Shown: positions 38,139-61,867, numbered from the stretch's first letter. The stretch: 64,000 nt of DNA from Myxococcota bacterium (GCA_024278455.1 JAJRTE010000118.1:33521-97520); one strand, 5' to 3'. A program made the numbers and translations. The notes: generated by a model not told the origin, from the sequence alone.

Positions 38139-39237
38139 GCGGGCATTCCCTTCTCCCGGCCGGGCACGACCGGAGAACGCCGATGATACATCTTTCGCGA
38201 AGCGGCTCGAGAACGGAACGACAGCGGGGAGCAACAGGGAGCGCAGAACACGGCAAGCACAATCGGTACTGCGGGGAAAGCCTTCCGCCGACGCCAGCGG
38301 TCGAATCATTCGGGCTGGCTGCTACCCAGTGTACATCGCACGGTCGCACCGTGTCAACGGGATTGACACTGCCAATTTGTGCGCGAAATCGCGGCAGAAA
38401 TCCGGCTGGATAGCGGTTGCCACCAGGTTTCCAGTGGTAGATTGGTCATTCCGTGGGCCTGCTCGACCCGGCTCGAGGACTCCGCCCACTGGTGGGCCGG
38501 GCCGCCAGGCCGAGTCTTGGGTGAACCACGATAGGCGTTGTGACGAAGAAACTCGGTGGGCAAGCGCATCGACGCAGCAGGACCACCCCGCGATGGGGTT
38601 GTAACGGTATGTTTTTGTTGAGAAAACCAGGTGGGGGCGGGTATTTGCCTGCCGCGCTGGATTCTCGCCAAGAAAATTCTTGCGCTGTTGGTTTGTCAGG
38701 TGTACGGATGACAGCATCCCAAGGGTAGAATCGCGTTAGCCGTCGTGGTGGCCGTGCTCAAAAACCGTCTCTATCACGAGATGTCGATAGCGATAATTTG
38801 CGATTATGGGTGAGAGAAAAATCTTGGCCCGTCAATAGAAAACATGGATTAGCGCTCGACCGATACTCTCTTCTCGTTCACAATAGCATGGGGTGTTCTG
38901 CCTTGCGACCTACTCGGGCTCGTTGTAGCGGATGTCGACCCGTTTCGTCCTGGTAGTTGCTTTGACACACGTCCAGAAAGTCCGAAAGCGCGTGGGAAGA
39001 ACGTCGCAAATAAACGCGGTGCGTCGAGCACCGCAGTGGAGGCCCTTCTGGCTGTCGTGGTTGCCTGCTCGAAACACGTCTGATGCAGGGACATTGGGGG
39101 ATGGCTTTGGGGGCGTGGTAGACCAAGGAATAACGCTGAGATCGGAGCCCGGGCGTGCCGAACAGAAGCTGACACGAGCACTCGCGGCGAACCAGGGAAC
39201 TACGGCGTTGGCAGTTGTTCCGACGGAGAGGTGTGAC

Positions 39238-40665
39238 ATGCCAGGAGAGCAGCAAGTACTGACTCCCTCCACAAGTGCTTCGCTCGAATCGGTGTATCCT
39301 CAAACCAAATGGCTCGCCCTCGTGCCGGGCATCCTGCTGCTTGGGCTGGTCGTGGCGGGGATGGCGTCTCTCTTCTCGCCCCCACAGGATGCCGGACCGT
39401 ACGGCATGGCTGCGGGGAATCAGCAGAGAACCGATGATGGCGCCGGAACACCTTCGCTCCGCGAACAGGCCATCGAATCCATCCGGATGGCAGCAACACT
39501 CCAGGAAGAGGACCCCGCCGAAGCCGAACGGCTCTACCGGCGCGCCCAGCAGGTTGCGCTCGACGCAGGTGACAACGGAGTGGCCGCATGGTCTCTTCGC
39601 ATGCTCGGTGACATGAAGAGCGATAGCGCTGTGCGAAACGCACGGGATGGCGATGGAAACGCCCCGGCCGAGTTCGACGAAGCCGAGGCGTTGTTGCAGC
39701 AGGCGTTGGAGATGGATCAATCCCATGGGTACGTGCAGGACTCTTACCTCGACTTGCTAGCATTGGCCGCTCTGGAGAAAAAACGAAAGGATTACCCAGC
39801 GGCAGAAAAAAGGTACCGGGAGATTCACCAGATCGCCTCGATGGACTCCGGCATGGCTCCGCTGATAGCCTGTTCGGCAGCAGCCGACCTTGGCGACTTG
39901 CTTCGCGAAACCGAGGGAGACGTGAAGAATGCGCAGAAGGCCTACCAGGATTGCCTGGCGACCTATCGGGATAGGGGTGACGCGCCCCGGGAGGCCTACT
40001 ACCTGTGGCGGCTCGGCGTCAACGCGTTCGAGCGTCTCGCCTTTGACGAGGCCATCGAAAGCCTCGAGAAGAGCGTGAAGATTTGGGACGAGGAACGCAC
40101 ATCTGGCCGGCTGAAGGAGTGGAATCAGAAGCCGATTCCGTGGTGGACATGGGTCTCGGAACAGTGGCTGGCGGTGGCTCGTATCCTCGAGATGGAGGAC
40201 CTGCAGGACCGCGATGGCGTGCACCTTTCCGAAGCGGGCAGAGTACGGGCGCAAGACGTGGACCCTGAGTGGATAGCTGGGCTGGCCGATGAGGCCCGGA
40301 TGTGGGCCCAGGAGATCCCGGCCACCACAGATCACATGCCCTATGCTGTGTGGGCCACTGCACTGTACCACCGGCTCACAGCGGCGCGGGACGGGGCGGA
40401 TTCCTTGGACGTCGAGCAAGACTTGCTGCGCTTGCGCCGGCAACGCGCCGACCACGAACTGGCGTTCCTGGCTGGCCGCGAACTGGCCGCATTCTATCTC
40501 GAACGCGGCGAGCGTTCCAGGGCACGCGCGACCGTGGCAGGTACCCTGGAGATGTTTCGGCCAGTCTACGCAAACGTTCCTTTTCTCAATCTTCACCACG
40601 AAGATCTCCTGAGGTGGCAGCGATCGCTGTCCGAAGGCCGCAGCGAGGTTTCGCCGGGCCGCTAG
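39238..40665 (+). CDS. Membrane-anchored TPR-like repeat protein (module 1)
   Basis: N-terminal TM anchor (WLALVPGILLLGLVVAGMASLF) followed by a TPR-like helical repeat region. It is a paralogue of the ORF at 60419..61867, sharing LAFDEAIESLE, ELAFLAGRELAAFYLE and NVPFLNLHHEDLLRWQ. Confidence 0.7.
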   Translation: MPGEQQVLTPSTSASLESVYPQTKWLALVPGILLLGLVVAGMASLFSPPQDAGPYGMAAGNQQRTDDGAGTPSLREQAIESIRMAATLQEEDPAEAERLYRRAQQVALDAGDNGVAAWSLRMLGDMKSDSAVRNARDGDGNAPAEFDEAEALLQQALEMDQSHGYVQDSYLDLLALAALEKKRKDYPAAEKRYREIHQIASMDSGMAPLIACSAAADLGDLLRETEGDVKNAQKAYQDCLATYRDRGDAPREAYYLWRLGVNAFERLAFDEAIESLEKSVKIWDEERTSGRLKEWNQKPIPWWTWVSEQWLAVARILEMEDLQDRDGVHLSEAGRVRAQDVDPEWIAGLADEARMWAQEIPATTDHMPYAVWATALYHRLTAARDGADSLDVEQDLLRLRRQRADHELAFLAGRELAAFYLERGERSRARATVAGTLEMFRPVYANVPFLNLHHEDLLRWQRSLSEGRSEVSPGR

Positions 40666-41273
40666 GCATGGCTATTCCTGCCAGGGTGCGCGTCAATCTC
40701 CGCAGCATAGGTTTTTGGCTTGGAGGCTGCTATGTGGTGGTGTAGGAAAAGATACATCTGCTTGATTGTTGGGCTCGTGGCGCTCATGGCGTGCCTGCAC
40801 TTCTCGATACCAGGTTGGGGCGTTTCGGTGGCATAGGAGAAGGTCCGCACCTCGTCGTGGCCGGCCCAGATCGTGGAACTCGTCAGGGCCCAGGTTACCC
40901 GGTTCTACGCCTTCCCCCACTTTGTCGGCAGTACCGATCGTTGCCGACTCCGACTCCAACGCCACAGCCCGATCTCCAGCGACGGCCCCTGCAACACCGC
41001 GGCCGCTGACCCAGGTGCAACGAGCAGAGCCGCGGGGCTGATCTTGCGTTCACCAGCGGTGGGGGCACCTGGTTCGATCCCGGAGGAGACGGATCCGTGG
41101 CACGATCAGGCCGAGCCCCCAGGAACGTTGTTCCCCTTGACCGACCCATCTGCCACACCCTGGTGGTGCTCCTCTTGGCGGTGCTCTTCTCGTCGTCCCC
41201 TGTGCATGGTGACTAGAGCAGCCAGGTCAATGGTAGTGAGACTGCCGAGAGTTTCCGCGTAGACCTCATCCAA

Positions 41274-43487
41274 TTGTCTCGATCTCCCTATCGCGGCGCG
41301 CCCACGGTGAAGGCCCGGTGTGCAACCGGGTCTCCCGAAGACCAGGCTTCCACGTTGCACCTGCGGCTTCCCGGAACCAGGGTGGCAGATCCATCAAGGA
41401 CCGTATCCATCCAGTTGCCGTGCACGAATGGTTTCGACTGGCCCCTCGAGGTGGCGAATCGCAGTGGGCCGGCGAATGAGGCGCGCGTTACGTTTCGAGC
41501 CGGTTCGGAGGAGACGTCGGCCGACCGTGCGCCCATGCCCTTCTTCATCCGCCGCAACGATTTTGTCGAAAGGCGTCTTGCGGAAATCGCACCGATCGGG
41601 ATCAACGCTCTCGCCTGCGGCCTCCCTGGCGACATCTGTGCCGTGGGAGGACGTGCCGGCTCGACCATGGTGAAGGAGCCGTTCGAGCAATCCGTTCTCC
41701 ACCTGTCATACAGCGATGGCTTGCCCGGTAGAGCCGTGATGTCGCTGGACCGTGCCGGCAAGACACTGTGGATTCAGACGGAGGATGGTTATTGCCGCTA
41801 CGATCCTCCCGGCGTACTACGGTGCGGACCGGCGACACCTGGGCTCGCCCGCTCCAGGCCGGGCAGATATCGAATCGTGGCGGATCCCATCCTGGAAGAA
41901 TGTGCCTGGGCGTTGCGGCCCGGCGGCAAGGTCAGGGCGGTCCATGGGCCATCTGGACCGATCGGCTCGGCGTTGAGGGAATACGAGGACGAGGTGCTGG
42001 AGGCGTTGGAAGCAGACGACATCGTGCTGCTGAACCTGGATCGCTGCCAGCAGCTTTGGGTGCTGGAGGGCGGGAAGCAGTACGACGTGTTCGTGCGCTG
42101 TCTTTTCGAAGACCCCCGCGACTCGAGCAGCCCATGTGGAGGATGGGTGGCCCCCCCCTCGAACCAGGTGCCGCTGGATGGCGATATCTGGCATGCAACG
42201 GGCGATCCTGCCCGCGTTGCATGGGTGTGGGGCTGGGGAACCGGGACGCTGAGAATCGACGCCGCTGTCGAGGATGGGAGCGTGGAGACCGGTGTTCGCC
42301 CCAAAGGAAGCCCCGTGTACGAGGAGAAGCTGCACACCCTTCTGCCGAAAGATGAGAAGGGGGGCTCGGACACGAACGTCCGATTGATTCTTCCTACCCG
42401 GGAGGGGGTCTGGATCGCTGGAGCGCAACGCGTCTGGTGGATCCCGAGAAAAGACTCGGGAGACGCAGAGCCCGGCGCCCCGGAACCGGGGAGTGCAGGC
42501 GACAAAGGTTTTGTTGGGCAGGTGCCTCGTGCGACCAGAGAGGGCGCTTCGCCGATCATCAAGGCCATGGCACCCACCGATGGCGGTGCCGGGGAGGCGC
42601 TTCTTGTTGCGACCGACCTGGGCGTGCACCGCTGCTGGCCCACTTTTGATGCCAAAGACCGCGTCACGTGCCGGGCGAGCACGCGAGTAGGGTACGCCGG
42701 TCCACAGGACGCGCGAATTACGGCCGCCTGGGCCGACATGAGCGGACGGTTCTGGGTGGGAGACTCCCGCGGTGGCGTTCATCTTCTGAGCCTGGACAGA
42801 ACGTTCGTACCCCATTGGGCCGACTCCATCGATCTGGGCGACAAGTACTATGCCGGCTCTGAACCTTTGGAGTCCGATAGTGGTGGTGGAGCTGACAGGG
42901 GCTGCTCGAGAGAGCGTCGAGCGGTTCAGGCCCTGGTGAAGACCAGCCGGTGGCTGTACATCGCTTGTTCGGACATGCTGTTTCTTTGGGACGTCGAGGG
43001 GCTTCCGGGCAGCGGAGGTGTCGCACCCCGGAGCACACCTGTCCCAATCATGTTCCAGAAGCCCTTTCTCACACCCGCGAATGCGGACGACCTGTTCGAC
43101 CGTCTTCCCATCGCAAGAATGCGGCTCGACCCTCAGAGCAGGGTGTTGGTCGCTACCAGCAACGGCCTCTACAGCGGTCCCCCTGTCGGCAAGGGGGGCG
43201 ACAACTCGCCGGTCTATTTGCGGTCAGTCCCACTTCCCCTTCCGCACGTAGGCGATGACACGGGAAACGGTGTCCCACGAAATAAGATCTCGGACTTCGC
43301 CTGCGATCGGAAAGACCGCCTGTGGGTGATAGTCGGCGGCAGCCTCTCGTACTTCAAGGTCGAGCATCGAGGGAACGCCACGAGCAGCGATACCGGCAGC
43401 GGGACCGCGCAGGCGAGCGACGAAGGATGCGGAACGGATCGATCGTCACAACAAGACGGGACGCCGGCGGACAACGCTCCAGAATGA
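41274..43487 (+). CDS. Large Reg_prop (two-component regulator propeller)-like beta-propeller repeat protein (module 1). The N-terminus is possibly disrupted
   Basis: Repeats of the L-W-I/V-G/A-T-x-x-G-L/I-x-x-Y/F type (TLWIQTEDGYCRYD, RFWVGDSRGGVHLL, LWVIVGGSLSYF). Paralogue of 56480..60067. A signal/anchor-like segment (LVVLLLAVLFSSSPVHG) lies in the same frame upstream but is separated from the TTG start by an in-frame TAG at 41214-41216. Confidence 0.6.
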   Translation: MSRSPYRGAPTVKARCATGSPEDQASTLHLRLPGTRVADPSRTVSIQLPCTNGFDWPLEVANRSGPANEARVTFRAGSEETSADRAPMPFFIRRNDFVERRLAEIAPIGINALACGLPGDICAVGGRAGSTMVKEPFEQSVLHLSYSDGLPGRAVMSLDRAGKTLWIQTEDGYCRYDPPGVLRCGPATPGLARSRPGRYRIVADPILEECAWALRPGGKVRAVHGPSGPIGSALREYEDEVLEALEADDIVLLNLDRCQQLWVLEGGKQYDVFVRCLFEDPRDSSSPCGGWVAPPSNQVPLDGDIWHATGDPARVAWVWGWGTGTLRIDAAVEDGSVETGVRPKGSPVYEEKLHTLLPKDEKGGSDTNVRLILPTREGVWIAGAQRVWWIPRKDSGDAEPGAPEPGSAGDKGFVGQVPRATREGASPIIKAMAPTDGGAGEALLVATDLGVHRCWPTFDAKDRVTCRASTRVGYAGPQDARITAAWADMSGRFWVGDSRGGVHLLSLDRTFVPHWADSIDLGDKYYAGSEPLESDSGGGADRGCSRERRAVQALVKTSRWLYIACSDMLFLWDVEGLPGSGGVAPRSTPVPIMFQKPFLTPANADDLFDRLPIARMRLDPQSRVLVATSNGLYSGPPVGKGGDNSPVYLRSVPLPLPHVGDDTGNGVPRNKISDFACDRKDRLWVIVGGSLSYFKVEHRGNATSSDTGSGTAQASDEGCGTDRSSQQDGTPADNAPE

Positions 43488-43805: not shown

Positions 43806-44906
43806 ATGGAGCGGTATGGCATGGCGTGGCTCGTGGATGCAGCCCAACTGACTACACGTCTCGGCAAGGCCCTCGTCTCGGGCCGTGTGCCAAACTACGT
43901 CATCGCCTTCGTGACCGGACACTGCAACATGTCCTGCGCCTTTTGCTGCCCGGCTTCCCGGTCCATCCGTGACGCGGATGAACTCGACCCGGACCAGTGG
44001 GGGCGCGCCTTGTCCGGGTGCGACGCACTGGTTCATCTCACCGTCACCGGCGGCGAGCCCTTCTTGCGCGACGACCTCCTCGACGTCGTCTCGAGTATGG
44101 TAGGTTCCAGCGGCGTTCCTCGGCTGAGCATCAACACCAACGGGTACTTCACGGGCAGGATCTTCGCCACCCTCGAGACGCTGTTGCGCCGGTTCCCGGG
44201 GGTCGACACCTGCCTGGCGATCTCCCTGGACGGACCTCGAGCCGTTCACGACGCGCTGAGAGGCATGCCCGGGGCGTTCACGCGGGCCCGATCCACCATC
44301 GACGAGGTGGACAGGCTGCGCTCGAGGTATCCTCGGCTCACGGTCCGTCTCACGTCGGTCCTACAGCCGGACAACGCAGATGTGCTGGGACCGTTCCTCG
44401 AGGAGACCGCCCTCTGGCCCGTCGACTTCCACGAGCTGGCCTTGATCCGTGACGTGCCGATCGAGGTTCAGCGCCAGGTGGTGGAAGCCTACCGCAGGCT
44501 CACCGCCGTGCAGCTCCGCCGGGCATCCCGCCGCTACCTCCAGACCATGGATTGGCGGCTCGCCCGGCAGCTCCGGCAGGACGTGTTGGACCAGACCGCC
44601 GAAGGGGCGAGACCGTTTGGTTGCCTCGCGGGCGGCCGGATGATCGAGGTGATGGCCGACGGCACCGTGCGCGGGTGCGAAATGGAGAAGATGCGGCCTC
44701 ACAGCAACCTGGGGCGGGTTGGGGGTGACGCACACACCATCGTGGACCTGCTGGCCGGCGAACCGGCGAGGCGGTTCCGGCGCAGGGCGGCGTCGTGCCA
44801 CTGTACGTTCGAGTGCGCACTGACCTGCAAGACCGTATTCACGCCTCGAGCATGGCCCCGCCTGTGGATGCCACGTCGCTTCGGGCCGGAACAGGAGGAC
44901 CGATGA
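43806..44906 (+). CDS. Radical SAM / SPASM-domain protein
   Basis: CxxxCxxC (GHCNMSCAFCC), GGEPFL, and a C-terminal Cys-rich SPASM-like region (CHCTFECALTC). Confidence 0.8.
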   Translation: MERYGMAWLVDAAQLTTRLGKALVSGRVPNYVIAFVTGHCNMSCAFCCPASRSIRDADELDPDQWGRALSGCDALVHLTVTGGEPFLRDDLLDVVSSMVGSSGVPRLSINTNGYFTGRIFATLETLLRRFPGVDTCLAISLDGPRAVHDALRGMPGAFTRARSTIDEVDRLRSRYPRLTVRLTSVLQPDNADVLGPFLEETALWPVDFHELALIRDVPIEVQRQVVEAYRRLTAVQLRRASRRYLQTMDWRLARQLRQDVLDQTAEGARPFGCLAGGRMIEVMADGTVRGCEMEKMRPHSNLGRVGGDAHTIVDLLAGEPARRFRRRAASCHCTFECALTCKTVFTPRAWPRLWMPRRFGPEQEDR

Positions 44907-45916
44907 ACCCGGTGGCGGTCAGCATTATCGTCCCCGCGCACAACGAAGCCTCGAGGCTCGATACGTGCTTGTCATCGATCGTCGAGATGTCCCGAACCAA
45001 GGGCTGGCAGGCACTGGTGGTGGACGACGGGAGCACCGACGAGACCGCCAAGGTCGCTCGAGGCGCGGGCCTACCGGTGATCCGAAACGAGACGCCACAA
45101 GGGGTGGCGGCGGCCCGCAACCTGGGAGCCAATCGCGCCGATGGCGACGTGCTGGTCTTCGTCGACGCCGATGTGGTGGCGCCGGCGGAAACACTCGAGG
45201 CCCTCGTCGCGCGGTTGGTGGACGATGCTGGCGTGCATGCTGTGGGTGCGTGGCCCGAAGTTTCGGACCTGTCGCCGGAATGGAGTGCCCGGTTCGTGGG
45301 CCTCCGCGCTGCCATGCCTTTCAAGATCGGGCCGCGATCGGACATCGAGTGCTTTTCCGCTTTCCAGTCCGAGTGCGGGGCCATCCGTCGCGAAACGTTC
45401 CAGGCCGTGGGAGGCTTCCCGGACCATCACCGGGGCGTTGGCATGGAAGAGTTCGAGATGGGCCACACTCTCGAGCGTCTCGGTTACCGGAATGTCATCC
45501 TGGCCGATGCCCACTACTACCACCATTTCAAACCGCTCGGTCCCCGGTGTCGCGAGCTGTACCGGCGAACGCGCCGGTGGGTTCCGCTCCTGCTCGACCG
45601 CGGGCGTCTCGAGTCCACCGGGGCGGTGGGAACTGGCCACGAGACCCTGTCCTGCGGGCTGTCCGTGGCCGCTGCCGCCGGGTTGGTGGTCGCGCCGTTT
45701 CACGCCGGCGGGCTGGTGTTGTCCGCTTCCGCCCTGGCTGCGCAAGGCTTGGTCGAGCGGCGGTTCCTGGCCCTGGCCCGGCGCACGTGCGGCCCCGCGA
45801 TGGCGCTGTACGCCCTGCCTGCGCTTCAGTGCATCAACCTGTCGATCGCCGCGGGGTTTGCGGCCGGGCTGGTCGACCAGGTCGCGCGCGGCGGCCGGAC
45901 GCCGGAGCAACGGTGA
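44903..45916 (+). CDS. Family 2 glycosyltransferase (GT-A fold)
   Basis: VSIIVPAHNEA ... VVDDGSTDET ... DxD (FVDAD). The start overlaps the stop of the preceding radical SAM gene. Confidence 0.8.
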   Translation: MNPVAVSIIVPAHNEASRLDTCLSSIVEMSRTKGWQALVVDDGSTDETAKVARGAGLPVIRNETPQGVAAARNLGANRADGDVLVFVDADVVAPAETLEALVARLVDDAGVHAVGAWPEVSDLSPEWSARFVGLRAAMPFKIGPRSDIECFSAFQSECGAIRRETFQAVGGFPDHHRGVGMEEFEMGHTLERLGYRNVILADAHYYHHFKPLGPRCRELYRRTRRWVPLLLDRGRLESTGAVGTGHETLSCGLSVAAAAGLVVAPFHAGGLVLSASALAAQGLVERRFLALARRTCGPAMALYALPALQCINLSIAAGFAAGLVDQVARGGRTPEQR

Positions 45917-45944
45917 TGGGGCGCTCCTGTTTCGGCGCAGCGCG

Positions 45945-45982
45945 CTGCGCCCCTGCCTCCCTCGCTCCTACTCGCTACTCGA
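45945..45982 (+). repeat. Partial copy of a roughly 30-bp GC-rich repeat motif (gYGCCCCTG ... CTCGCTaCTyC); see also 61951-62063
   Basis: tgcgcccctgcctccctcgctcctactcgctactcg aligns with the two direct repeats at 61958 and 62032. Confidence 0.3.
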
Positions 45983-46009
45983 GACGATGTCAAGATGGGT
46001 TGGGCGACC

Positions 46010-46471
46010 CTATTGGGGTCCTCGAGACGATCGCAACTCCCGATAACGTGTCTCTTCATGGAGTTCCGAATGGTGCGAACGGTGTTGGAAGCTCAACAAC
46101 CAATGGGAACCGGTCAGCAGGAATTGCCCGGTTTCGTCGCGGTTGGCGTCGATCCGCTCCTTGATGTAAGGAAGGAGGTCCGGGGCGTACTGCACCTCGT
46201 CGAATATCACGGGCGGTGGGTACATCTCGACGAAGGTACGCGGATCTCGCTGTGCAGCCCCGCGGACATCGGGTGGCTCCAGGGAGACGTAGCGGTGGTG
46301 CGTTCCGAAGAGGTGCAGCAGGAGCGTGGTCTTGCTGGCCAGGCGGGGTCCGGTGAGCACCAGGGCCGGGAACTCGGCGGCCGCTTCCTTGAGGATGGGC
46401 TCCAACGATCGCTCGATGTCGGCTGGACGCACGGGCAGCCTCCTTGGTGGAGACGCGCATTTCGAATGCAC
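46010..46471 (-). pseudogene. N-terminal fragment of an AAA_14/DUF4143-family ATPase with a degenerate Walker A
   Basis: ALVLTGPRLASKTTLL (the GK Gly is replaced by Ser), IFDEVQYAPDL, FLLTGSH, then loss of similarity after about 120 aa. Homologous to the intact copy at 32089..33288. Confidence 0.5.
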
Positions 46472-50092: not shown

Positions 50093-50103
50093 AAGGAACA
50101 GCG

Positions 50104-52795: not shown

Positions 52796-52999
52796 CGCTC
52801 GACCTCGTTTCCACACCGCACCCGCAACCGCTCGTGCCGGTCCCGGGGGACCCGGCTCGACCGCATACCGCCCTGCACATTCCGGGATTGTGTCCAGTAT
52901 GAGAAGACCCGGCGGTCTCCCTGGGTGCGCCTGCGTTCCGGGTGAAAGGACCTCGTCGCGGGGCTGACGCCGCCGGGACGGGGTCCTGTCGGCTCCCTG

Positions 53000-53563: not shown

Positions 53564-54879
53564 CCACCCATAATGACGATACGGTCGCTCGAGACCTCCA
53601 CCACCTGTCCGGAGATGGACGCGTGGTGGTTGGCTCCGAGCTTGCCGGCTGGAATGCGCGCGATCAACTGCCCCTTGGAAACGTGATCGCCTCTCCGGAC
53701 CACCGGCTCCGAAGGCGCCCCGCTCTGCTGCGTCAGGGAGATGGCGACTCGAGGCGGGTCCTCCATCCGGGTCAGGGGCAGGTCATGGTCCTCGTAGGGC
53801 TTCAACTGGTACCGGCGCGTGATCCTGTCCTTGCCGATCTTGCGATACTTGTTGAACTCGTGGAGCTGCCTGGGGGCATGGTGGTGCGGATTCTTGACCC
53901 CGGCCGCCCGCAACCGCTCGAGGATCTCGGCGTAGGCCCGCCTGGGACTGAGATACATCGGGCAGGCAAACTCGCACAGCCCGCACTGGGAGCACAGGAA
54001 CGCCGCGGTCATCACCGACGTGGGCTGCTCCAGTTTGTATGCCAGCGTTCGCATCACCCTGTGGGGCTCGATATGGTGCCCCTGCATGTACCTCGAGCAG
54101 GCGTCAGTGCAGTAGCGGCACTGGCAGCAGGCGGCCACGCTCCGCCGGATCATCGCTTCCATGGTGATCTGCTTCTGCTGGACCACCGGGTGATCTCTCG
54201 GCAGGAACAGGATTCCGCTCGTCGTCTTGTTGACGGAAGCACCGGTGCCGACAATCCGGCCCATCATCGGTCCGCCGTCGATGATGGCGATGTCCTCCAC
54301 CGGGATCCTGGGCTGACAGCGCAGCAGAAGATCCAGCACCGGCGTGCCGATGGGCGCGATGATGACTTGCGGGTGTTCGATTTCCCCTGCCAGGGTCACG
54401 ATCCGGTCGGTCACCACACGACCGCGAGCAGCTCGAGCCACCTGGACCATGGTCAACACGTTGCTGACGACCGCGCCGACCTGGAGTGGAATGCCGCCCT
54501 CCGGGACGATTCGTCCGGTGAGGTCCGCGAGGAGTATGTGCTCGTCGCCGGCCGGGTAGGTGTTGCCCATCAGGCCAAGCTGGACGTTGCCGCGTCCGTT
54601 CAACTGCTCCGTCAGGGCCTCCACCGCTCCGTGGTAGTGTTTCTTGACCCCGATCAGGCCTCGAGACGCGCTGGTGTGGGACATGATCAGCAGCAGGCCC
54701 TCGAGGATTTCGTCGGCGTAGTGCTCCATGACCCGCTGGTCCGACGCGAGCAGGGGCTCGCATTCGGCCCCGTTGGCCAGGACCAGGTCCACCTTGGCAT
54801 CGATCTTCACGTGGGTAGGGAATCCCGCTCCGCCGCAACCGATGATGCCGGCGTCACGAACGATATCGACAAGAGACAT
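53560..54879 (-). CDS. PduS-like cobalamin reductase / RnfC-family flavin and Fe-S oxidoreductase
   Basis: GIIGCGGAGFPTHVKI (NADH/FMN-binding motif of PduS/RnfC). Two 4Fe-4S ferredoxin motifs (CCQCRYCTDAC, CSQCGLCEFACP). Its stop overlaps the PduT-like start. Confidence 0.8.
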   Translation of the reverse strand: MSLVDIVRDAGIIGCGGAGFPTHVKIDAKVDLVLANGAECEPLLASDQRVMEHYADEILEGLLLIMSHTSASRGLIGVKKHYHGAVEALTEQLNGRGNVQLGLMGNTYPAGDEHILLADLTGRIVPEGGIPLQVGAVVSNVLTMVQVARAARGRVVTDRIVTLAGEIEHPQVIIAPIGTPVLDLLLRCQPRIPVEDIAIIDGGPMMGRIVGTGASVNKTTSGILFLPRDHPVVQQKQITMEAMIRRSVAACCQCRYCTDACSRYMQGHHIEPHRVMRTLAYKLEQPTSVMTAAFLCSQCGLCEFACPMYLSPRRAYAEILERLRAAGVKNPHHHAPRQLHEFNKYRKIGKDRITRRYQLKPYEDHDLPLTRMEDPPRVAISLTQQSGAPSEPVVRRGDHVSKGQLIARIPAGKLGANHHASISGQVVEVSSDRIVIMGG

Positions 54880-54912: not shown

Positions 54913-55518
54913 TTACAGAATAGCGCGGGGCGGTGCAACCGAAAAGAGGCTGTGCAGGTCGGGTCTCGGGACTTCTCCGCCAAGGGCTCTCCGGCGGAGG
55001 GCCGTGACAGGGAGACGCAGGCGTCGTCTCGCGGGAGTGATCCGAGTGGATGAGTCACCGAACCACAGTGCTCCCTGGGTGTCTCGCGCGATGAAGACAG
55101 CCTCGGGAGACAGGCCGTGCTGTGGGCCGAACGGTCCTACCACCCCGTCCTGGGGCGTGATGGCGTAGGTCAACCGAAGGTCCTGGTCGCCGCCTCCACC
55201 GGTGGCGCCCCCCTTTCTACGCTCCGATACGAGTGCCCAGATGTTGCCCCGGCTGTCCTGGCCGAGCGCGCAGATGTTCGTCTCGACGGCGTTGCTCGAA
55301 GAGACGCTTGGTGGCGAGGAAGTACCGTGGGAAATGGCCCGCATTACCCGCGGCTTGCGATGCGACCGCTCCCCGTGCGATGACGGACCGGCAAAGCACG
55401 GGACGCCTTCGAGTGCCGGTGATTTCGGGCACCAGGGCGGCGTGTCGGTGGTTGCGGACATTGGGGAGCAGGTTTGGTGTTCGGGCACACGAGGGGTGGG
55501 ACTGCGAGGAGTTCGCAC
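54913..55518 (-). pseudogene. Truncated duplicate of a fragment of the large beta-propeller gene at 56480..60067
   Basis: It encodes SSSNAVETNICALGQDSRGNIWALVSERRKGGATGGGGDQDLRLTYAITPQDGVVGPFGPQHGLSPEAVFIARDTQGALWFGDSSTRITPA, identical except for one residue to an internal segment of the 1289-aa protein. The flanks are unrelated. Confidence 0.45.
55028..55306. repeat. Copy 1 of a roughly 279-bp near-identical direct repeat
   Basis: About 99% identical to 57115-57392. The two mismatches are gggAgacagg vs gggCgacagg and ctCcgatac vs ctTcgatac. Confidence 0.85.
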
Positions 55519-55766
55519 CAGGTGTCATCCACTTCGCCGTCCGGATAGGTGAACCAACCGAAGAACAGGGTGGATTCATCTGTGCGATGAACGGACACAA
55601 GGCCAGTCAGGGCCACGTCGAGCCGGGCGATGTACAACTCGTGAATTCGTCCGCTGACGAAATCGGGGACGAAGTCCTCCACCGCCAGGGCCAACGCCCC
55701 GCCATTGGCGTCCCCCGTGTCGGGGGACAAGACGTCCTCCTCTGTTGGTGGTGTTTTCATTCTACC
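55344..55766 (-). CDS. Small hypothetical protein. The C-terminal part is possibly corrupted by the adjacent duplication
   Basis: MKTPPTEEDVLSPDTGDANGGALALAVEDFVPDFVSGRIHELYIARLDVALTGLVSVHRTDESTLFFGWFTYPDGEVDDTWCELL has good GC3 bias. The last 45 codons (proline-rich) have poor GC3 and run into the repeat boundary. Confidence 0.3.
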   Translation of the reverse strand, partial: GRMKTPPTEEDVLSPDTGDANGGALALAVEDFVPDFVSGRIHELYIARLDVALTGLVSVHRTDESTLFFGWFTYPDGEVDDTWCELLAVPPLVCPNTKPAPQCPQPPTRRPGARNHRHSKASRALPVRHRTGSGRIASRG

Positions 55767-56145
55767 CAAGCCCTGGGAGAAGTCTCAAGGGTTTGCTGGT
55801 TGTTTTGGTCTGGTGCCGGGAGAGCCGGGCAAGGCGGGCGTTGGGTACGTGGGACAGTCCAGGTCAAGCGGCTCGTACCCCCCTTTTGAAAGTGTCTCGA
55901 GAATCCCTCTGGGGTCGTCCAACCGCCATGGGAAAGGTTTCGGACCGAGGGCAGACCGGTAGAGGAGCGGCCCGAGCGGGCTGTTCGGATTCGGAGGAGG
56001 ATGCGGGGGGCTGGTCATCCCAGTGGGTCAGGATGTGAGGAGATCGAACCCATGGTCTGCTGATAGAGCCGCCTCCGTGTCTTCGGGCGGTAGCGGCTCG
56101 AGCGCCGGTTTCAAGAATTCGTTCTCGGCGACCACCCCAACGCCC

Positions 56146-56370
56146 CTACCCGTCCAGTCCTCCCTGCGCCAGCAGGACCGACCGGTAGTCGTCGTCGCAC
56201 CGCAGGCAGGTGTCGAACCAGGCTCCCTCGGCCACAAGGCGATGCTTGTCCTCGAGGAGGTCTGCCCAGTCGACCTGTGCCACCAGGCCAAGGCGGTGGC
56301 CACCTGGCACATCGTTGACACAGGAGAGGAGGTCGCCGTCCGACGTGATGAAGGTGACCGACGCGAACAT
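56146..56370 (-). CDS. Small hypothetical protein (74 aa)
   Basis: Strong GC3 bias throughout. A GGAG sequence lies 10 nt upstream of the ATG. Sequence MFASVTFITSDGDLLSCVNDVPGGHRLGLVAQVDWADLLEDKHRLVAEGAWFDTCLRCDDDYRSVLLAQGGLDG. Confidence 0.4.
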   Translation of the reverse strand: MFASVTFITSDGDLLSCVNDVPGGHRLGLVAQVDWADLLEDKHRLVAEGAWFDTCLRCDDDYRSVLLAQGGLDG

Positions 56371-56479
56371 CCCACATCTCGAGCAGGCTCCTGGTCGCGG
56401 GCGTGCGTCGCCGTGTCCTCCCCGGCCGTGCTTCCCCCGCCAGAAAAAGGAGAATCCGCGTGCCTAGGACCATCTCTTG

Positions 56480-59400
56480 CTACTCTCCTCTCGACCCGGT
56501 TCGGGTTCCCTGGGTCTTCGGCCCAAGTGGGTGCAGATAGCGAACGATGGCCACAAGAAGGAAGGGAAGCAGGGCGTGGACAATCGCCAGGCGGGGTAGG
56601 GCACTTCCCAAGAAAACGGGGCCTGGCTGGGCAAGGCAATCCACGAAAAGATGGTTCCCAAGAAAACCGTTCTCCGTGATCTGGCCGCGAACTCCTCCGG
56701 CAACGAGGAACCAGGCCCCCGTGCTCAGGAGCGTCAAGAGAAGAAAGAGAACCGCCACACCCCAGTCCCGACTTTCAAGGTGCCTTCGGTTCCCGGCCAG
56801 GCGAACCATGAGGGAGACAAGGCCCAGGGCATGGCCACCGACAAGGACAAGGCGTGAGTCGATCTGGTCGAGAAGTCCGAGAATGGGGAAGCTCGGGTCG
56901 AATCGCAAGTACGACACCATGGTTGCCAATCCGCCCGCAAGGACCCACGTTGAGAGTTCCCAGGCAAAAACCATGTCCCACAGCGAGGCCTCCTTGCCGG
57001 CGCCGAGTTTTCTCCAACTCCAAACCAGCAGGCATACCCAGACGATGACACTCGCAAGCTCGACTCCGAATGCCCCGCACCAGCCCATGGCGGTCCTTTC
57101 GGGACCGCAGCGATTCGCGGGAGTGATCCGAGTGGATGAGTCACCGAACCACAGTGCTCCCTGGGTGTCTCGCGCGATGAAGACAGCCTCGGGCGACAGG
57201 CCGTGCTGTGGGCCGAACGGTCCTACCACCCCGTCCTGGGGCGTGATGGCGTAGGTCAACCGAAGGTCCTGGTCGCCGCCTCCACCGGTGGCGCCCCCCT
57301 TTCTACGCTTCGATACGAGTGCCCAGATGTTGCCCCGGCTGTCCTGGCCGAGCGCGCAGATGTTCGTCTCGACGGCGTTGCTCGAAGAGACGTTGTCGTT
57401 GCCAGCAGGAAGGAGAGGGGGCGCGGCACGCAGCCGCTTCGTCCATGCCTCGACTGGCTGGAAGCTGTGCGACCCGGTGTCGCCGATTCTCCCACGGAAG
57501 AGCTTGTCGCCTTGCCCCCATGCCCACAGCCGGTTGGTGTGGTCCAGGAAGATGTGTTCGATGTCGATGTCGTTCCGCTGCCCGTCCGCCGCCGGTCCCT
57601 CTCCGGTGCTGCAGGGCCTCAGATGTACGGTGACCGCAGGACTCTTTCGAGCGTCGCCCGCCGCGGTCGAGGCGCCAGCGGTGTTTTGGTAGGTGACATC
57701 GAAACAGCTCAAACCGTCCCTGACGACCCAAAGCCTTGCTGACTGTTGGTCCTGGACTTCCACGGCAATGCTCTTGACCTTCGCATTGGCCCTCCTGGCG
57801 TCGGTTTTCCGAACCCGGGGCATATCGACGGTTTGCAGGTAGGCTGCACGCTGGGTTCGGTATCTCGTCCAGTCCGGTGGGCCGGTGTAGATCCCTCGAC
57901 TGGTGGCCACCCAGAGCACACCGTTCTCGTCCACCAGCATTTTCGCTATCTCTCTCTGTGCCGCGACATCCACGATGAGGCCTGACCGGCGCTTCTGACC
58001 GGGCTTCTGGAACAGGACGGGTTCGGGAGAGTCGGAGGGACAACGCGGGCCCTCTCCGAGCGCGACTCTCGAGGCCCCCACGTTCCACCGATAGAGGCGG
58101 TCAGCGTAGGCGATGTACAACCACTTTCCGACCATGGCCAGGGCGCGAACAGACTGCGGGCTCATGAGCGTTCTGCATGCCCTGGTGCTCGCGCCCGTGC
58201 CGCTCTTGGTTTCCTCGCTCGTCGTTTTCAAGACACCACGTGCTGGATAGGTCGAGCAGGCCCAAAAGGGAGCAAGTGTGTGGCCCTGCACGAGGGCGTG
58301 TACGCCGCCGGAAGAATCACCAACCCAGAATCGTCCGGCCCGGTCTGGTGAGGCGGCGGTGATGTGGGCGTCCCGGGGTCCGAGCGATCCTTCCCCCGGT
58401 GGCACTCTGCGCTTACAGGTTACGCCGGGGTCCCGCTTCTCGCTCAAGTTGTGGGTACACTCGTATCTCCCTGCGTCGGTTACGACGAGCACGGGGTCAC
58501 CCACATCGCCGTCAAGGGCGCGGATCGCGTTGATATGCAGGTGCGTACCTCCGGAAACCGGCTGGAGCGTCGCGGCGCCCACGGTTACTGTCTTCTTCTT
58601 GTCCAGAATCGGCGGATCGTCCTTCCCTGCTTTTTTCCTCGGGAGCCACGACAGGCCGCGGTCATGGCCTACCCAGACGCCGTCGCGTAGTGGCAGGATG
58701 GCGTGGATCGTGGAGAGGTTCGTGATTTGCTCGAGATCGAGACGCCTGCATGCCTGTTGGTCCGTTTCCGGCTCAGGCGCTCCGGGGAGACCCCCTGTGG
58801 CGGCCGCACGGCGGCAGGCGATCAACGCGGTTCCCCCTCGGCCCCACACCCAGCCCGGTTGGAAAGGATCGGCGACCGTGCTGGAGAGTTCCAGGCCGGT
58901 CGGCACTTGAAGGGGATGGCTCCATCGATCGCATGGTGGCCCGGCGTCAGGCGCGTCCCACTCCGGGAGAGAGCGTTCGAATACCGTGTAGCGCATGTCC
59001 AGACTTTCCAGCACCCACAGTTGCTGAAAGGTGCCCAGGTCCAGTATCGCAATATCGTCTGCCGATACGCTGTCGAGCCCGCGGGCCGCGGTTTCACGAA
59101 GGACGGTACCGAGCTTCTGGTCGACCTCCTGAACAGCCAACACACGGCCGTCCGGCAGCACCTCCCAGGCACAACGCGCGGGATAGATCGGATCCGCGAT
59201 GACCCGATAGCTCCGTTGGCGCACCCGGCGCTCTTCGACCTGTTGTAGGGATGGACGCGTTGCCGGTCGTGTGCACAACAGGGTCCCCGGACCGTCATAT
59301 CGGCACACCCCCCGGGCTGTCAGAATCCAGAGGACTCCCTCACGACCGTCCAGGGATATGACCGTGTCATCGGGCAAGCCGTCGAGGTAGCTCAGTCTGG

Positions 59401-60067
59401 ACCCGGCTTGCTCGAAAGGATCATTCAGGATGGTGACACCACCTCGTCCCCCGATAGCCCAGTAGTGGCCAAAGGGTTGGATAGCACTGACACTGACAGG
59501 CGCCGTCATGGCATCACGAGTGAGATAGTCCGACCTCCTGATGAAGAACGGCATCGGAACATCATGATGACATGCTGACTTTGTGCCGCGGTAGACGTCC
59601 ATGCGAGCACTGGCGGTAGGAGCGGCACGGTTTGCCAACGTCAACGGCCAGTCGAAGGTCGTTCCACAGGGTGGCTGGAAAGGGATCTTCCAGTTCTTGC
59701 TAGGATCCATTCCTCCCGGTTGGAGAAGCAGCCAGTGGGTGCTTGCGCGTGGAGACCACTGCGAACAGCGCAGCCTGACGCCCAGTGTGTGTCGGGTGGG
59801 CTCACGGGGTACCTGGACGAGGTCGAGTGTACCATCGCAGGTCACCTCGGAAGCCGGCGGGTCCTTGCCGACGTTCGCGACGACGGCCGTGGCCTGAGGT
59901 GCCAGGACCCAGGGCAGAAGAGCAATGAGCACATACGTGATGGGTCTGACGGCACGGGCGGCTGAGGAAGGCAGCAGGAGAAGTCGTTGCACGCGCACCA
60001 CCTCTTCAGGGAAGAGCCGTCCGGTTGCCCAGCAACGGCCGTGGGAGCCGTACCTCCTCGCTGCCAT
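56480..60067 (-). CDS. Large Reg_prop-like beta-propeller repeat protein with a signal peptide and a C-terminal polytopic membrane domain (module 2)
   Basis: Signal peptide (VRPITYVLIALLPWVLAPQATA). Reg_prop-like repeats (VLWILTARGVCRYD, RFWVGDSSGGVHAL, VLWVATSRGIYTGP, RLWVVRDGLSCFDV). About 200 aa C-terminal region with 5-6 TM helices. Paralogue of 41274..43487 (FDWPLTLANR / VPMPFFIRRSDYL). Confidence 0.7.
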   Translation of the reverse strand: MAARRYGSHGRCWATGRLFPEEVVRVQRLLLLPSSAARAVRPITYVLIALLPWVLAPQATAVVANVGKDPPASEVTCDGTLDLVQVPREPTRHTLGVRLRCSQWSPRASTHWLLLQPGGMDPSKNWKIPFQPPCGTTFDWPLTLANRAAPTASARMDVYRGTKSACHHDVPMPFFIRRSDYLTRDAMTAPVSVSAIQPFGHYWAIGGRGGVTILNDPFEQAGSRLSYLDGLPDDTVISLDGREGVLWILTARGVCRYDGPGTLLCTRPATRPSLQQVEERRVRQRSYRVIADPIYPARCAWEVLPDGRVLAVQEVDQKLGTVLRETAARGLDSVSADDIAILDLGTFQQLWVLESLDMRYTVFERSLPEWDAPDAGPPCDRWSHPLQVPTGLELSSTVADPFQPGWVWGRGGTALIACRRAAATGGLPGAPEPETDQQACRRLDLEQITNLSTIHAILPLRDGVWVGHDRGLSWLPRKKAGKDDPPILDKKKTVTVGAATLQPVSGGTHLHINAIRALDGDVGDPVLVVTDAGRYECTHNLSEKRDPGVTCKRRVPPGEGSLGPRDAHITAASPDRAGRFWVGDSSGGVHALVQGHTLAPFWACSTYPARGVLKTTSEETKSGTGASTRACRTLMSPQSVRALAMVGKWLYIAYADRLYRWNVGASRVALGEGPRCPSDSPEPVLFQKPGQKRRSGLIVDVAAQREIAKMLVDENGVLWVATSRGIYTGPPDWTRYRTQRAAYLQTVDMPRVRKTDARRANAKVKSIAVEVQDQQSARLWVVRDGLSCFDVTYQNTAGASTAAGDARKSPAVTVHLRPCSTGEGPAADGQRNDIDIEHIFLDHTNRLWAWGQGDKLFRGRIGDTGSHSFQPVEAWTKRLRAAPPLLPAGNDNVSSSNAVETNICALGQDSRGNIWALVSKRRKGGATGGGGDQDLRLTYAITPQDGVVGPFGPQHGLSPEAVFIARDTQGALWFGDSSTRITPANRCGPERTAMGWCGAFGVELASVIVWVCLLVWSWRKLGAGKEASLWDMVFAWELSTWVLAGGLATMVSYLRFDPSFPILGLLDQIDSRLVLVGGHALGLVSLMVRLAGNRRHLESRDWGVAVLFLLLTLLSTGAWFLVAGGVRGQITENGFLGNHLFVDCLAQPGPVFLGSALPRLAIVHALLPFLLVAIVRYLHPLGPKTQGTRTGSRGE
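57115..57392. repeat. Copy 2 of the roughly 279-bp near-identical direct repeat (within the module-2 beta-propeller gene)
   Basis: See copy 1 at 55028-55306. Confidence 0.85.
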
Positions 60068-60418
60068 GGTGGCTAGCGACGACGCAGGTTCTTGGGCGGC
60101 GTTTCTGGTGTCGGTGGTGGGGTGGGCGTCGGCGTGACCATGGGATCGTTCACGGGCGGCCCCACGTGGGTCCCCGGCAGCAATCCTTGTGTCAACTGCC
60201 ATTTGAACAATTCCGCGAGCTGTTCCGCCCATGACCTGGGCGCCACCCTTTCCTCCGCTGCCGCCGCTCCCCCCCCTGGCAGTTCGAGCTTGATGGAAAA
60301 CGCCAGAATGAAGAGGCCAACAATCAAGTAGATGCGTTTCTTTGTCCACTGTATCATTGCCACACCCTTGAACAACCCGGAGCTGTATTCGAAAAGGAAA
60401 TGCGCCCGTGGCGCACCA

Positions 60419-61867
60419 TCATCGGACAGATTCGTTCTTGCCAATGCTGTCAAGATGTCGGTTTGCTGTCTGGCAAGGCTGCTGTTGCCAAATCAGCAAT
60501 TCCTCACGGTAGAGTTTCAGAAGAGGAACGTTGTCGTGGGCAGGCCGATAGGTGTCCAGCGCGGCGTCGACCACGGAAGCAAACCTTTCACAGTCTGCAT
60601 GATCGAGATAGAACCTGGCGAGTTCTCTTGCAGCCATGAACGCGAGTTCGTCGTCGTCGTTTCTGGTCAGGTCCTCCAGGGTGGCCTGAACAGATGCTGG
60701 GTGCAGGCCCACGAGCCGGTCATAAGTCGCTGCCGTCAACTCCGCGTAGCGAAGATGGGCCTGCGCAAACGACTTATCACGAAAACGCTCCGCGTCATCT
60801 CGGACCGCATGGACCAATGTCGCACCGCCGGACCGCAGGGCGTTCGCCCTGACGTTTCCCGCCTTGGAAAGGTGCGCGCCATCACGTTCAAGGAGATCTT
60901 CAAGCTCAAGAACCCGGGCTAACATCGTGTCTTGAGTGGCCAGCCATTGCCACCACGCGAACGACTTCCGATCCCACTCTTCCGGCTTGCCGAACTCGGC
61001 AACCTGTTTCCAGAGGTCGCTGCTCGCTTCGAGGTCGTCGATGGCTTCGTCGAATGCCAGCCGATCGATGGCATTGCTGCCCAACATCCAGTAGGAGTAG
61101 GCCTGCCTCGGAACATCTCCAAGGTCTCGATAGGTCTCCAGGCACTTTTCCCTCGCTTCACGCACAGTTTCCACATCTCCATGGGTCTGGCGACGAATGT
61201 TCCCGAGGTCTGCTTCGATAGAGCATTCGACCCTTGGGTCCAGGCCAATGGTCGTGGAGAAAAGCTGAAGAGCTTCCCGATACCTCGAGGCTGCGACGTC
61301 GAGACGCCCCCTTCTCTTTTCCAGGGTTGCCATGGCTTGCAGAACAAGACACTCCTCCTGCGCCAACTCGTGGGCTCGGCTCAGGTCCAGCGCCTGGTTC
61401 AACAGGGCATCGGCCTCGGCAAATGCTGCCACAGCGGCATCTGCGTCTCCGTCCTTCCGGAGAGCATCGCCGTAACTGCCCTTCAAGTCACCAAGCAACC
61501 TGAGGCTGAGCGATGCGGTTGCGTAGTCTCCGGCCTCGAGTGATTGGCGCAACGCCTGATGGTAGAGCTGTTCGGCTTTGGCGTCGTCCTCGGCCTCGAC
61601 CGCGGCTCCCTCTCGGAGAGATGCCATGGCCAGTTCGCGCAGCGAGGGCGGTGGATCGGCATCCGCCCGTTTGAAAGCCTCCCAGGCAAGACTCGACGAG
61701 CTGGAACCTCCGGATGCGGAAAACAGGGGCGCAAGGCCCACGACAAACAAGATCATGATCCCGGCTGGTATGGCCAACGCCCATTTCGATGTTCGTGAGT
61801 CGTTTTCGCTGTCGTTGACAGGCGCATTGGGAGTACCCAACGCTTCCGACGCATTGGCCATCGTCAT
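60419..61867 (-). CDS. Membrane-anchored TPR-like repeat protein (module 2), paralogue of 39238..40665
   Basis: N-terminal TM anchor (WALAIPAGIMILFVVGLAPLF). Shared blocks LAFDEAIDDLE, ELAFMAARELARFYLD, NVPLLKLYREELLIWQ. Confidence 0.7.
   Translation of the reverse strand: MTMANASEALGTPNAPVNDSENDSRTSKWALAIPAGIMILFVVGLAPLFSASGGSSSSSLAWEAFKRADADPPPSLRELAMASLREGAAVEAEDDAKAEQLYHQALRQSLEAGDYATASLSLRLLGDLKGSYGDALRKDGDADAAVAAFAEADALLNQALDLSRAHELAQEECLVLQAMATLEKRRGRLDVAASRYREALQLFSTTIGLDPRVECSIEADLGNIRRQTHGDVETVREAREKCLETYRDLGDVPRQAYSYWMLGSNAIDRLAFDEAIDDLEASSDLWKQVAEFGKPEEWDRKSFAWWQWLATQDTMLARVLELEDLLERDGAHLSKAGNVRANALRSGGATLVHAVRDDAERFRDKSFAQAHLRYAELTAATYDRLVGLHPASVQATLEDLTRNDDDELAFMAARELARFYLDHADCERFASVVDAALDTYRPAHDNVPLLKLYREELLIWQQQPCQTANRHLDSIGKNESVR

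Follow-up and report, generated by a model that had tools for sequence, protein, structure and literature searches.

Two Diverged TPR–Propeller Modules Inverted around a Conserved Gene Cluster in a Myxococcota Bacterium

1. Introduction

What does it mean when two related groups of envelope genes face each other across a block of unrelated enzymes? The question is raised by a stretch of 64,000 nucleotides from a Myxococcota bacterium (GCA_024278455.1, JAJRTE010000118.1:33521–97520), which is called the window below and has a GC content of about 63%; all coordinates are counted from its first letter. Two gene groups, or modules, are found there in inverted orientation, each of which encodes a tetratricopeptide repeat (TPR) protein with a membrane anchor and a large protein built of Reg_prop beta-propeller blades, and 12,993 nt separate the two propeller genes, in agreement with the distance of roughly 13 kb given in the initial annotation of this DNA. 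In that annotation, which was made from the sequence alone, the DNA in between was taken as an accessory island, and the whole arrangement was regarded as a composite unit. The reading put forward here, which is considered probable on balance, is that two old, strongly diverged, lineage-specific copies of a three-gene envelope module are inverted around an ancestral gene cluster; one copy, module 2, looks functional, the other, module 1, looks decaying, and the products would form a periplasmic ligand-binding or scaffolding complex. That is to say, the observation made in the initial annotation is confirmed and its interpretation is partly supported; the annotation had overlooked a third gene in each module, the decay seen in module 1 and a duplication of 278 nt within module 2.

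2. Two Paralogous Modules with the Same Gene Order

In this paper, module 1 is the copy on the + strand (TPR1, the remnant of a small gene, and prop1), and module 2 is the copy on the − strand (TPR2, small2 and prop2). Their genes are as follows:

39238–40665, + strand: TPR1, 475 aa, N-terminal membrane anchor followed by TPR repeats, frame intact, module 1
40732–41009, + strand: remnant of the small gene, with an in-frame TAG at 40834–40836 and a Pro/Thr-rich tail in another frame (three-frame translation), module 1
41097–43487, + strand: prop1, likely start GTG 41097 with a signal peptide, TAG at 41214–41216, remaining open reading frame (ORF) 41274–43487, module 1
56480–60067, − strand: prop2 (P0001), 1195 aa, signal/anchor helix, N-terminal domain, about 14 blade units, five predicted transmembrane (TM) helices and a basic tail, module 2
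60073–60357, − strand: small2, 94 aa, basic N-terminus, one TM helix, a periplasmic helix and then a Pro/Thr-rich tail (DNA and translation), module 2
60419–61867, − strand: TPR2 (P0002), 482 aa, N-terminal membrane anchor followed by TPR repeats, module 2

The two TPR genes and the two propeller ORFs are found where the initial annotation had placed them, and pairwise alignment, which it had proposed as a check, is significant for both pairs: TPR1 (39238–40665, +) and TPR2 (61867–60419, −) share 42% identity over 446 aligned residues (E 1e-94), and prop1 (41274–43487, +) and prop2 (60067–56480, −) share 36% identity over 739 aligned residues (E 1e-107). All of the motif pairs quoted there are also present in the translations. 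Such homology is far above chance, and the modules are true paralogues with an identical gene order in inverted orientation; no further copy was detected in the window by tblastn.

The domain content was then only in part as expected. Reg_prop (PF07494) is the sole Pfam domain match in both propeller proteins, with 26.3 bits for prop1 and 43.4 bits for prop2 against a gathering score of 20.4, and these whole-protein scores are sums of many weak blades, no individual repeat being above the cut-off. No kinase, receiver or Y_Y_Y domain was matched by Pfam in either protein (for Y_Y_Y, at E <= 1), so that the propellers do occur without a kinase, as had been stated, and the Y_Y_Y domain for which a search had been suggested is absent. 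For the TPR proteins, TPR_12 is matched in TPR1 (46.5 bits; cut-off 30.1), and in TPR2 it stays below that cut-off (18.4 bits). The AlphaFold2 (AF2) model of TPR2 is an all-helical solenoid with a pLDDT of 67, confident at residues 70–250, and its Foldseek matches are TPR superhelices, e.g., the TPR domains of LGN/Pins and OGT (probability 1.00). Taken together, the hidden Markov model (HMM) match and the modelled alpha-solenoid place the module TPR proteins in the TPR class, and an N-terminal membrane anchor is present on each of them, as originally described.

In Pfam, NCBIfam, PADLOC and PHROGs there is no described family to which the pairing of a TPR protein and a propeller protein corresponds, and the last three contain nothing specific for the module proteins. 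That the modules are an anti-phage defence system or a prophage was also considered and rejected, PADLOC and PHROGs having given only a generic TPR match and one weak PHROG match of unknown function.

3. The Third Gene

The unit had been described as a module of two genes. The TPR and propeller genes are indeed paired, but a third gene, encoding a small single-pass membrane protein, lies between them in both modules. In module 2, the intergenic gaps are 61 nt and 5 nt, the latter separating the stop codon of small2 from the ATG of prop2, and module 2 is an operon-like three-gene unit. No family match for small2 was found in the databases scanned, which included NCBIfam, PADLOC and PHROGs.

In module 1, the corresponding gene is a remnant. 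By tblastn, small2 matches it with 42% identity over 55 aa spanning the TAG codon (E 2e-11), and the Pro/Thr-rich tail matches small2 in another frame (E 3e-4), which points to a frameshift in the small gene of module 1. In both modules, the spacer between the TPR gene and the propeller gene encodes the small protein, which is why the two spacers resemble each other (repeat I3). A non-coding RNA in this conserved spacer was also considered and set aside, since the small-protein gene explains the similarity and Rfam found nothing in the window.

4. Anatomy of the Propeller Protein

The N-terminus of prop2 consists of an Arg-rich stretch, the cytoplasmic part being about 40 aa, followed by a hydrophobic helix that ends in AxA; neither propeller protein has a Cys lipobox in its signal peptide. 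Next comes the N-terminal domain (about 130 aa), in which the motifs FDWPL..ANR and PMPFFIRR are strongly conserved and for which no match was found in the profile search, the domain scans or the PDB sequences. The propeller part follows at residues ~190–985, where 14 blade-like units were mapped at a spacing of 41–70 aa. For each unit, an HMM was made from all the blade positions except its own (leave-one-blade-out), and the score of the unit was compared with those of 200 shuffles of it: nine units are supported (at most 7 of the 200 shuffles reach the score), support is marginal for three, and units 3 and 9 have none. Two propellers of seven blades each would give this count of 14, and BT4663, BT4673, BT3049 and PorZ all have such a pair (PMC5121618).

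The last ~200 aa of prop2 form the polytopic membrane region that had been noticed at the outset and that prop1 lacks. Four hydrophobic segments were found by hydropathy and five helices in the secondary structure of the AF2 model; the helices lie at ~994–1180 and are followed by a short basic tail of about 17 aa. This region would thus be a domain of five TM helices with a cytoplasmic C-terminus, and its loops and tail fit the positive-inside rule. The AF2 model, which was made from a two-sequence alignment, has a mean pLDDT of 32.5 and no usable fold, and it was used for secondary structure only.

Between the paralogues, 10 of 16 aligned Cys residues are conserved, compared with 38% identity overall, and Trp, Cys, Pro and Gly are all conserved well above average. 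The conservation of Cys fits disulfide bonds in an exported protein and, together with the positive-inside rule, suggests a periplasmic location. In the same way, the basic residues beside the TM helices of TPR1, TPR2 and small2 suggest that the N-termini of these proteins are cytoplasmic and their large domains periplasmic. The GC content by codon position is coding-typical along the full length of module 2.

5. Distribution of the Family

A HMMER profile was built from prop1 and prop2 with the N-terminus trimmed, and it was searched against 1.84 billion representative proteins. Only three proteins match over the full length, namely P0001 (prop2), P0009 (prop1) and P0010 (a duplicated fragment described in Section 8), and all of them come from this genome. 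The other 465 matches have E-values of 3e-16 or higher and best stretches of 35–90 aa, and nearly all of them lie in one conserved blade region of canonical Reg_prop proteins, which corresponds to profile positions ~145–260. The N-terminal and membrane domains of prop2 were not matched in the 1.84 billion proteins, only its own product was returned by a word-indexed homologue search with prop2, and no relative of the propeller was found by pattern scans in 185,579 species genomes or in the JGI metagenome contigs. The propeller family is an orphan, found only in this genome.

The TPR proteins were followed in a similar way. The exact sequence of TPR1 is present in the protein collection (P0003), and no relatives of the TPR proteins were found by the pattern scan of the 185,579 species genomes. 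The word-indexed search with TPR2 returned its own product only; it scored the top 8000 word-sharing candidates and missed TPR1 of the same collection, so this result is not evidence of absence.

Among the ten blade-level relatives scanned with Pfam, five carry histidine-kinase domains and five do not; the latter have Reg_prop alone, or Reg_prop with Y_Y_Y, CBM9 or a sub-threshold Vgb_lyase match. Y_Y_Y (PF07495) occurs in six of the ten. The lack of a kinase, which had been presented as something out of the ordinary, is therefore common among Reg_prop proteins, and PorZ is kinase-less too (PMC5121618); what is unusual is the whole architecture and the extent of the divergence.

6. The Intervening DNA Is a Conserved Core

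The DNA between the modules contains the following cluster, whose genes were assigned with Pfam and NCBIfam:

43806–54879, given without a strand for the cluster as a whole: core cluster of radical SAM, glycosyltransferase families GT2 and GT9, radical SAM/SPASM, DegT aminotransferase, B12-binding radical SAM, BMC shell protein and PduS/RnfC-like flavoprotein genes

The 90%-identity cluster of the BMC shell protein has members in other assemblies, and one of them, P0007, led to a relative in which the same genes can be compared. Three contigs of one lineage served as comparators: CAYQMG010000007.1 of GCA_964418585.1 (L001), a Logan contig (L002) and a JGI contig (L003). In the relative, the order is A2M (alpha-2-macroglobulin, 1951 aa), PduS-like, BMC, B12-radical SAM, DegT, radical SAM/SPASM, GT9, GT2 and radical SAM (the cluster occupying 8682–18059 of L001), followed by PPTase, a protein with an Adenosine_kin domain, a 136-aa ORF and M4 peptidase. 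The proteins shared by the window and the relative have 61–91% identity, and the DNA has 69–80%. None of the three contigs encodes a module protein.

Both modules stand at the edges of this shared order. The distance from A2M to the PduS-like gene is 147 nt in the relative and ~7.5 kb in the window, where it is filled by module 2 and a repeat-bearing segment, and homology to the relative resumes ~65 nt upstream of the PduS-like ATG. Module 1 stands where the relative has the PPTase, Adenosine_kin and 136-aa genes, none of which is present in the window. GC at third codon positions (GC3) is 0.65–0.71 in the modules, the lowest in the window, 0.76–0.84 in the core and 0.71–0.80 in the rest. The other PduS-like loci (L004–L082, 35–49% identity) do not share the order of the cluster and are unusable as outgroups.

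It follows from the conserved order in a relative without modules that the modules, not the island, are the variable DNA; as far as the comparison of sequences goes, the 13-kb stretch is a conserved ancestral core. The description of these genes as accessory does not hold, and the neighbourhood comparison that had been suggested as a test of whether the island is variable gave the opposite result: the island is kept and the modules are absent.

Several features of the core may be recorded in their own right. Its combination of genes is unusual, with a shell protein of tandem BMC domains, a PduS/RnfC-like flavoprotein, radical SAM proteins, DegT and glycosyltransferases, and its B12-binding radical SAM protein is HpnJ/BchE-like at scores under the family cut-offs. 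Between GT2 and GT9, where the gap in the relative is 46 nt, the window has an insertion of 1.65 kb, within which there is a lone gene for a Cmr6-like RAMP protein of type III-B CRISPR (46393/46444–47079, + strand; TIGR01898 at 110.7 bits with a cut-off of 51.1; PADLOC Cmr6, E 1.7e-34). No other cas gene and no CRISPR array was seen in the window.

7. Decay of Module 1 and Amber Codons

TPR1 is intact, and the rest of module 1 is damaged. The sequence upstream of the prop1 ORF is homologous to the signal/anchor helix of prop2, in frame from GTG 41097, and the alignment to the prop2 N-terminus crosses the TAG at 41214–41216 in one frame (34% over 127 aa, E 4e-17). The remaining ORF comprises the N-terminal domain and 11 blade-like units; it stops after unit 11 and has neither the membrane domain of prop2 nor its three additional units. 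In the public annotation, only a 690-aa product with an internal start (P0009) is given for prop1. Judging from two amber codons, a frameshift and the loss of the last three blade units and of the membrane domain, module 1 appears to be decaying.

Recoding or suppression of TAG was tried as another explanation and rejected. TAG terminates 13 of the 33 tabulated ORFs, including the BMC, DUF507 and PBP2 genes (one of the 13 is the amber codon in the M4 peptidase gene), so that it is an ordinary stop codon in the window; the TAG codons of module 1 are therefore read as nonsense mutations or possibly as sequencing errors, and recoding is unlikely.

A further amber codon lies next to module 1. The gene of the M4 (thermolysin-like) peptidase, 35043–38309 on the − strand, is split by an in-frame TAG at 36741–36743, which sits at the third zinc-ligand Glu of the GALNEAxSD motif: GQSGALN*ALADLFG (the asterisk marks the stop) aligns to ESGALNEAISDIFG of the neutral protease 1NPC. 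In the relative, the same gene is one uninterrupted ORF with both M4 domains. There are thus three amber codons within 4.5 kb (36741, 40834 and 41214), of which at least two are consistent with GAG>TAG. At the far edge, a TAG at 426–428 (+ strand) stands in one frame between two ORFs, the first of 141 codons and truncated by the end of the window, the second of 1131 codons. No Pfam match was obtained for either, and since a GTG comes one codon past the TAG, they may simply be neighbouring genes rather than a fourth gene with an amber codon.

8. The 278-nt Repeat beside prop2

A direct repeat of 278 nt with 99% identity (2 mismatches) is associated with module 2, and its copies are 2086 nt apart:

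55029–55306, − strand: repeat copy 1, in the annotated 201-aa ORF 54913–55518 (P0010), at the PduS-side edge of the inserted segment
57115–57392, − strand: repeat copy 2, inside prop2 (residues ~892–985, blade units 13–14), just before the membrane domain

Copy 1 retains the frame of prop2 in P0010, whose Reg_prop score is 20.4 bits, and then continues as an Arg-rich junk tail, ending 34 nt short of the PduS-like start. Segment X (55307–57114), the 1.8 kb that separates the copies, consists of the codons of the membrane domain and ~1.2 kb without matches, and apart from the 278-nt repeat it has no match to the window or to the relative. Since the codons of the membrane domain share their composition with the rest of module 2, the fusion of propeller and membrane domain is thought to be native, and copy 1 is regarded as a dispersed duplication, small and recent, at the border of the inserted segment.

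In the unmatched part adjoining prop2, there is also a 74-codon ORF (56146–56370, − strand) with high GC3 and a weak SPASM-like C-terminal signature (E 0.019), possibly a piece of a radical SAM gene.

9. Comparison with Known Systems

The sensors of hybrid two-component systems (HTCS), such as BT4663 (PDB 4A2L/4A2M) and BT4673 (3V9F), resemble prop2 in having Reg_prop blades, export and a membrane tether. They are the best remote matches of prop2 among the proteins searched and its sole sequence matches in the PDB, where only single blades of BT4663 and BT4673 (incl. 4a2l) were matched. In function, the BT4663 sensor binds disaccharides on its two seven-bladed propellers (PMC5121618). Unlike these sensors, prop2 has no Y_Y_Y, HisKA, HATPase, receiver or HTH domain, and it carries in addition the N-terminal domain of ~130 aa and the five-helix C-terminal membrane domain. 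The similarity itself is one of single blades: when the propeller profile was compared with a canonical HTCS by hhalign, one blade pair of 58 columns was aligned, and the Reg_prop scores of prop1 and prop2 are 26–43 bits, compared with 140–290 bits in the ten relatives scanned.

PorZ of Porphyromonas gingivalis is a kinase-less protein with two seven-fold propellers of the HTCS type (PMC5121618), and it handles a glycan, being described as delivering anionic lipopolysaccharide (A-LPS) to the PorU sortase of its type IX secretion system (T9SS) (PMC8545088). It is like prop2 in being a cell-envelope protein with HTCS-type propellers and no kinase, and it provides a precedent for a non-signalling role. 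It is unlike prop2 in its location on the cell surface, its T9SS C-terminal domain (CTD) and its lack of membrane helices. No T9SS signal, T9SS gene, CTD-type Pfam match (E <= 1) or sequence similarity to PorZ was found here.

[quoted passage not shown] In both cases, the gene of an anchored periplasmic TPR protein lies just upstream of the gene of an exported beta-propeller. In YfgM, the TM segment is at the N-terminus, and the protein has a domain in the periplasm (PMC9643414). There is, however, no sequence relation: no Pfam match of YfgM or PQQ/BamB type was found at E <= 1, and none in NCBIfam. Compared with BamB, prop2 has no lipobox, ~14 blades and a polytopic anchor, and the TPR proteins of the modules have ~480 aa compared with ~200 aa in YfgM. 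Judged by the defining features of these three systems, the module proteins are members of none of them.

From these comparisons, the following picture of module 2 can be drawn. Prop2 would be exported by way of its N-terminal signal/anchor helix, would fold as an N-terminal domain and ~14 blades, likely in two seven-bladed propellers as in HTCS sensors and PorZ, and would be fixed on the inner membrane by the five C-terminal TM helices. TPR2 and small2, both oriented with the N-terminus inside and the C-terminus outside, may act as scaffold and adaptor, and the bulk of all three products would be periplasmic. Because no cytoplasmic output domain is present, the complex is more likely to be a ligand-binding (possibly glycan-binding) or scaffolding device of the envelope than a signal transducer.

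10. Weighing the Explanations

As to how the arrangement arose, the proposal first made was that the modules bound a composite unit, perhaps a mobile or co-transferred one, with the 13-kb island as its cargo. The inverted orientation with the same gene order in both modules and a composition of the modules unlike that of the DNA between them agree with it, but it can hardly be maintained, since the supposed cargo keeps its order in the relative without modules, where the same A2M gene directly adjoins it and, beyond three unrelated genes, an M4 peptidase gene follows as in the window. The arms are only 36–42% identical as protein, and at the DNA level the longest matches are at most 57 nt at 75–79%, plus one 303-nt stretch at 64%, all within coding sequence; the best inverted arms measure 57 nt at 79% and are no near-identical terminal inverted repeats. 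No transposase or integrase domain was found in the ORFs scanned at 38–62 kb and no tRNA gene in the window, and the GC3 of the island is above that of the modules and typical of the rest of the genome. A better case can be made for modules that were ancestral at both sites, as old and fast-evolving residents, and that the comparator lineage then lost by deletion: the divergence of the paralogues is much greater than that of the core orthologues, and the three different genes at the module 1 site of the relative indicate that this site has been remodelled in one lineage or the other. Even so, this is not likely, although it deserves more weight than any other alternative, for it would need two independent clean losses and the absence of the family from all other sampled genomes and metagenomes, and the lower GC3 of the modules fits foreign or recently arisen DNA. 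A lineage-specific gain of the modules is favoured on such sequence comparisons, because the family is absent elsewhere and its composition is atypical.

As to what the modules do, one alternative is a kinase-less sensor, in which the propellers bind a periplasmic ligand and the five-helix domain signals to an unlinked partner, e.g., a transporter, a kinase or an anti-sigma factor. HTCS sensors are the best-known proteins with Reg_prop blades (PMC5121618), and a propeller is here coupled to a polytopic membrane domain; with a tail of ~17 aa and an N-terminal stretch of ~40 aa, however, prop2 has no cytoplasmic domain, it has no Y_Y_Y spacer, its membrane domain has no homologues in the profile search, and no regulator, sigma/anti-sigma pair or kinase gene is adjacent in the window, so that a sensor is thought unlikely. 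A bolder version of the envelope role would make module 2 an undescribed envelope machine, with a double Reg_prop propeller and its own five-helix domain, a TPR scaffold and a Pro/Thr-rich adaptor, which originated or was acquired very recently in one lineage and was then duplicated, and which would have a task that no known Reg_prop protein has; it might, e.g., pass a glycan or lipid-linked intermediate from the neighbouring glycosyltransferase, radical SAM and DegT enzymes to the envelope. This is considered a little less likely still; the neighbouring enzymes are unusable as guilt-by-association evidence because their adjacency to the modules is not conserved. At the other extreme, neither module may be functional, both being decaying remnants or in part assembly artefacts of a rearranged draft region. 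The three amber codons within 4.5 kb together with the frameshift speak for this, as does the 99% duplication at the membrane junction of prop2, which yields an annotated fragment ORF. Module 2, however, has three intact and tightly spaced ORFs, one of them of 1195 codons in a genome of 63% GC, its GC by codon position is coding-typical throughout, and the fact that Trp, Cys, Pro and Gly are conserved well above average implies that purifying selection acted over a long time once the duplication had occurred; the loss of function in both modules is accordingly regarded as improbable.

Several points weigh against the reading preferred here, that is, two lineage-specific copies of an envelope module of which one works and the other decays. 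With a single comparator lineage, insertion in this genome and loss in the other are formally inseparable. The divergence of the paralogues (36–42% identity) compared with that of the core orthologues (61–91%) fits either an old duplication with loss or fast evolution, and the possible explanations are an early duplication with two later losses in the relative, two separate uptakes from related but unknown donors, and fast evolution after a recent duplication. The amber codons of module 1 could be sequencing errors, and the 278-nt duplication beside the membrane junction raises the doubt that the fusion in prop2 is a product of rearrangement or assembly. With the mean pLDDT of 32.5, the two seven-bladed propellers are a motif count only, and 2 of the 14 blade units are without statistical support and 3 are marginal. 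There are no homologues from which constraint could be inferred, a point that also favours the loss of function just discussed, and the distribution of the TPR family rests on searches of limited sensitivity, the word-indexed one having overlooked the known paralogue TPR1.

11. Other Features of the Window

Upstream of TPR2, in a spacer of 563 nt, two 37-nt direct repeats with 84% identity lie at 61952–61988 and 62026–62062. Identical promoter-like hexamers (GTTGACACG, with TACACT 18 nt on) occur at 62323–62294 upstream of TPR2 and at 38357–38328 (− strand) upstream of the M4 peptidase gene; the count of such promoter-like sites is not above the shuffled expectation.

Farther away, at 27419–29560 (− strand), a single frame of 713 codons joins a Beta-lactamase domain (PF00144), an AccD zinc ribbon and a carboxyltransferase, which may be an unusual fusion; it continues in the same frame into a Mur-ligase (FolC-like) ORF with only a TGA in between. 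An AAA_14/DUF4143 ATPase gene at 32089–33345 (− strand) matches the candidate defence family PDC-S01 of PADLOC (E 8e-83).

12. Significance

The family is known from a single genome, and the main present value of the analysis is a correction: the stretch regarded as an island is the core, and the modules that flank it are variable. The region illustrates cleanly how an orphan module arises, is duplicated and decays where a conserved cluster ends. Should module 2 be functional, Reg_prop propellers, which are best known as the sugar sensors of hybrid kinases, would have been reused here with a polytopic anchor and a TPR partner and without a signalling output. Rather than a mobile or composite unit, the modules are a lineage-specific curiosity, and their architecture is a new one among Reg_prop envelope proteins.

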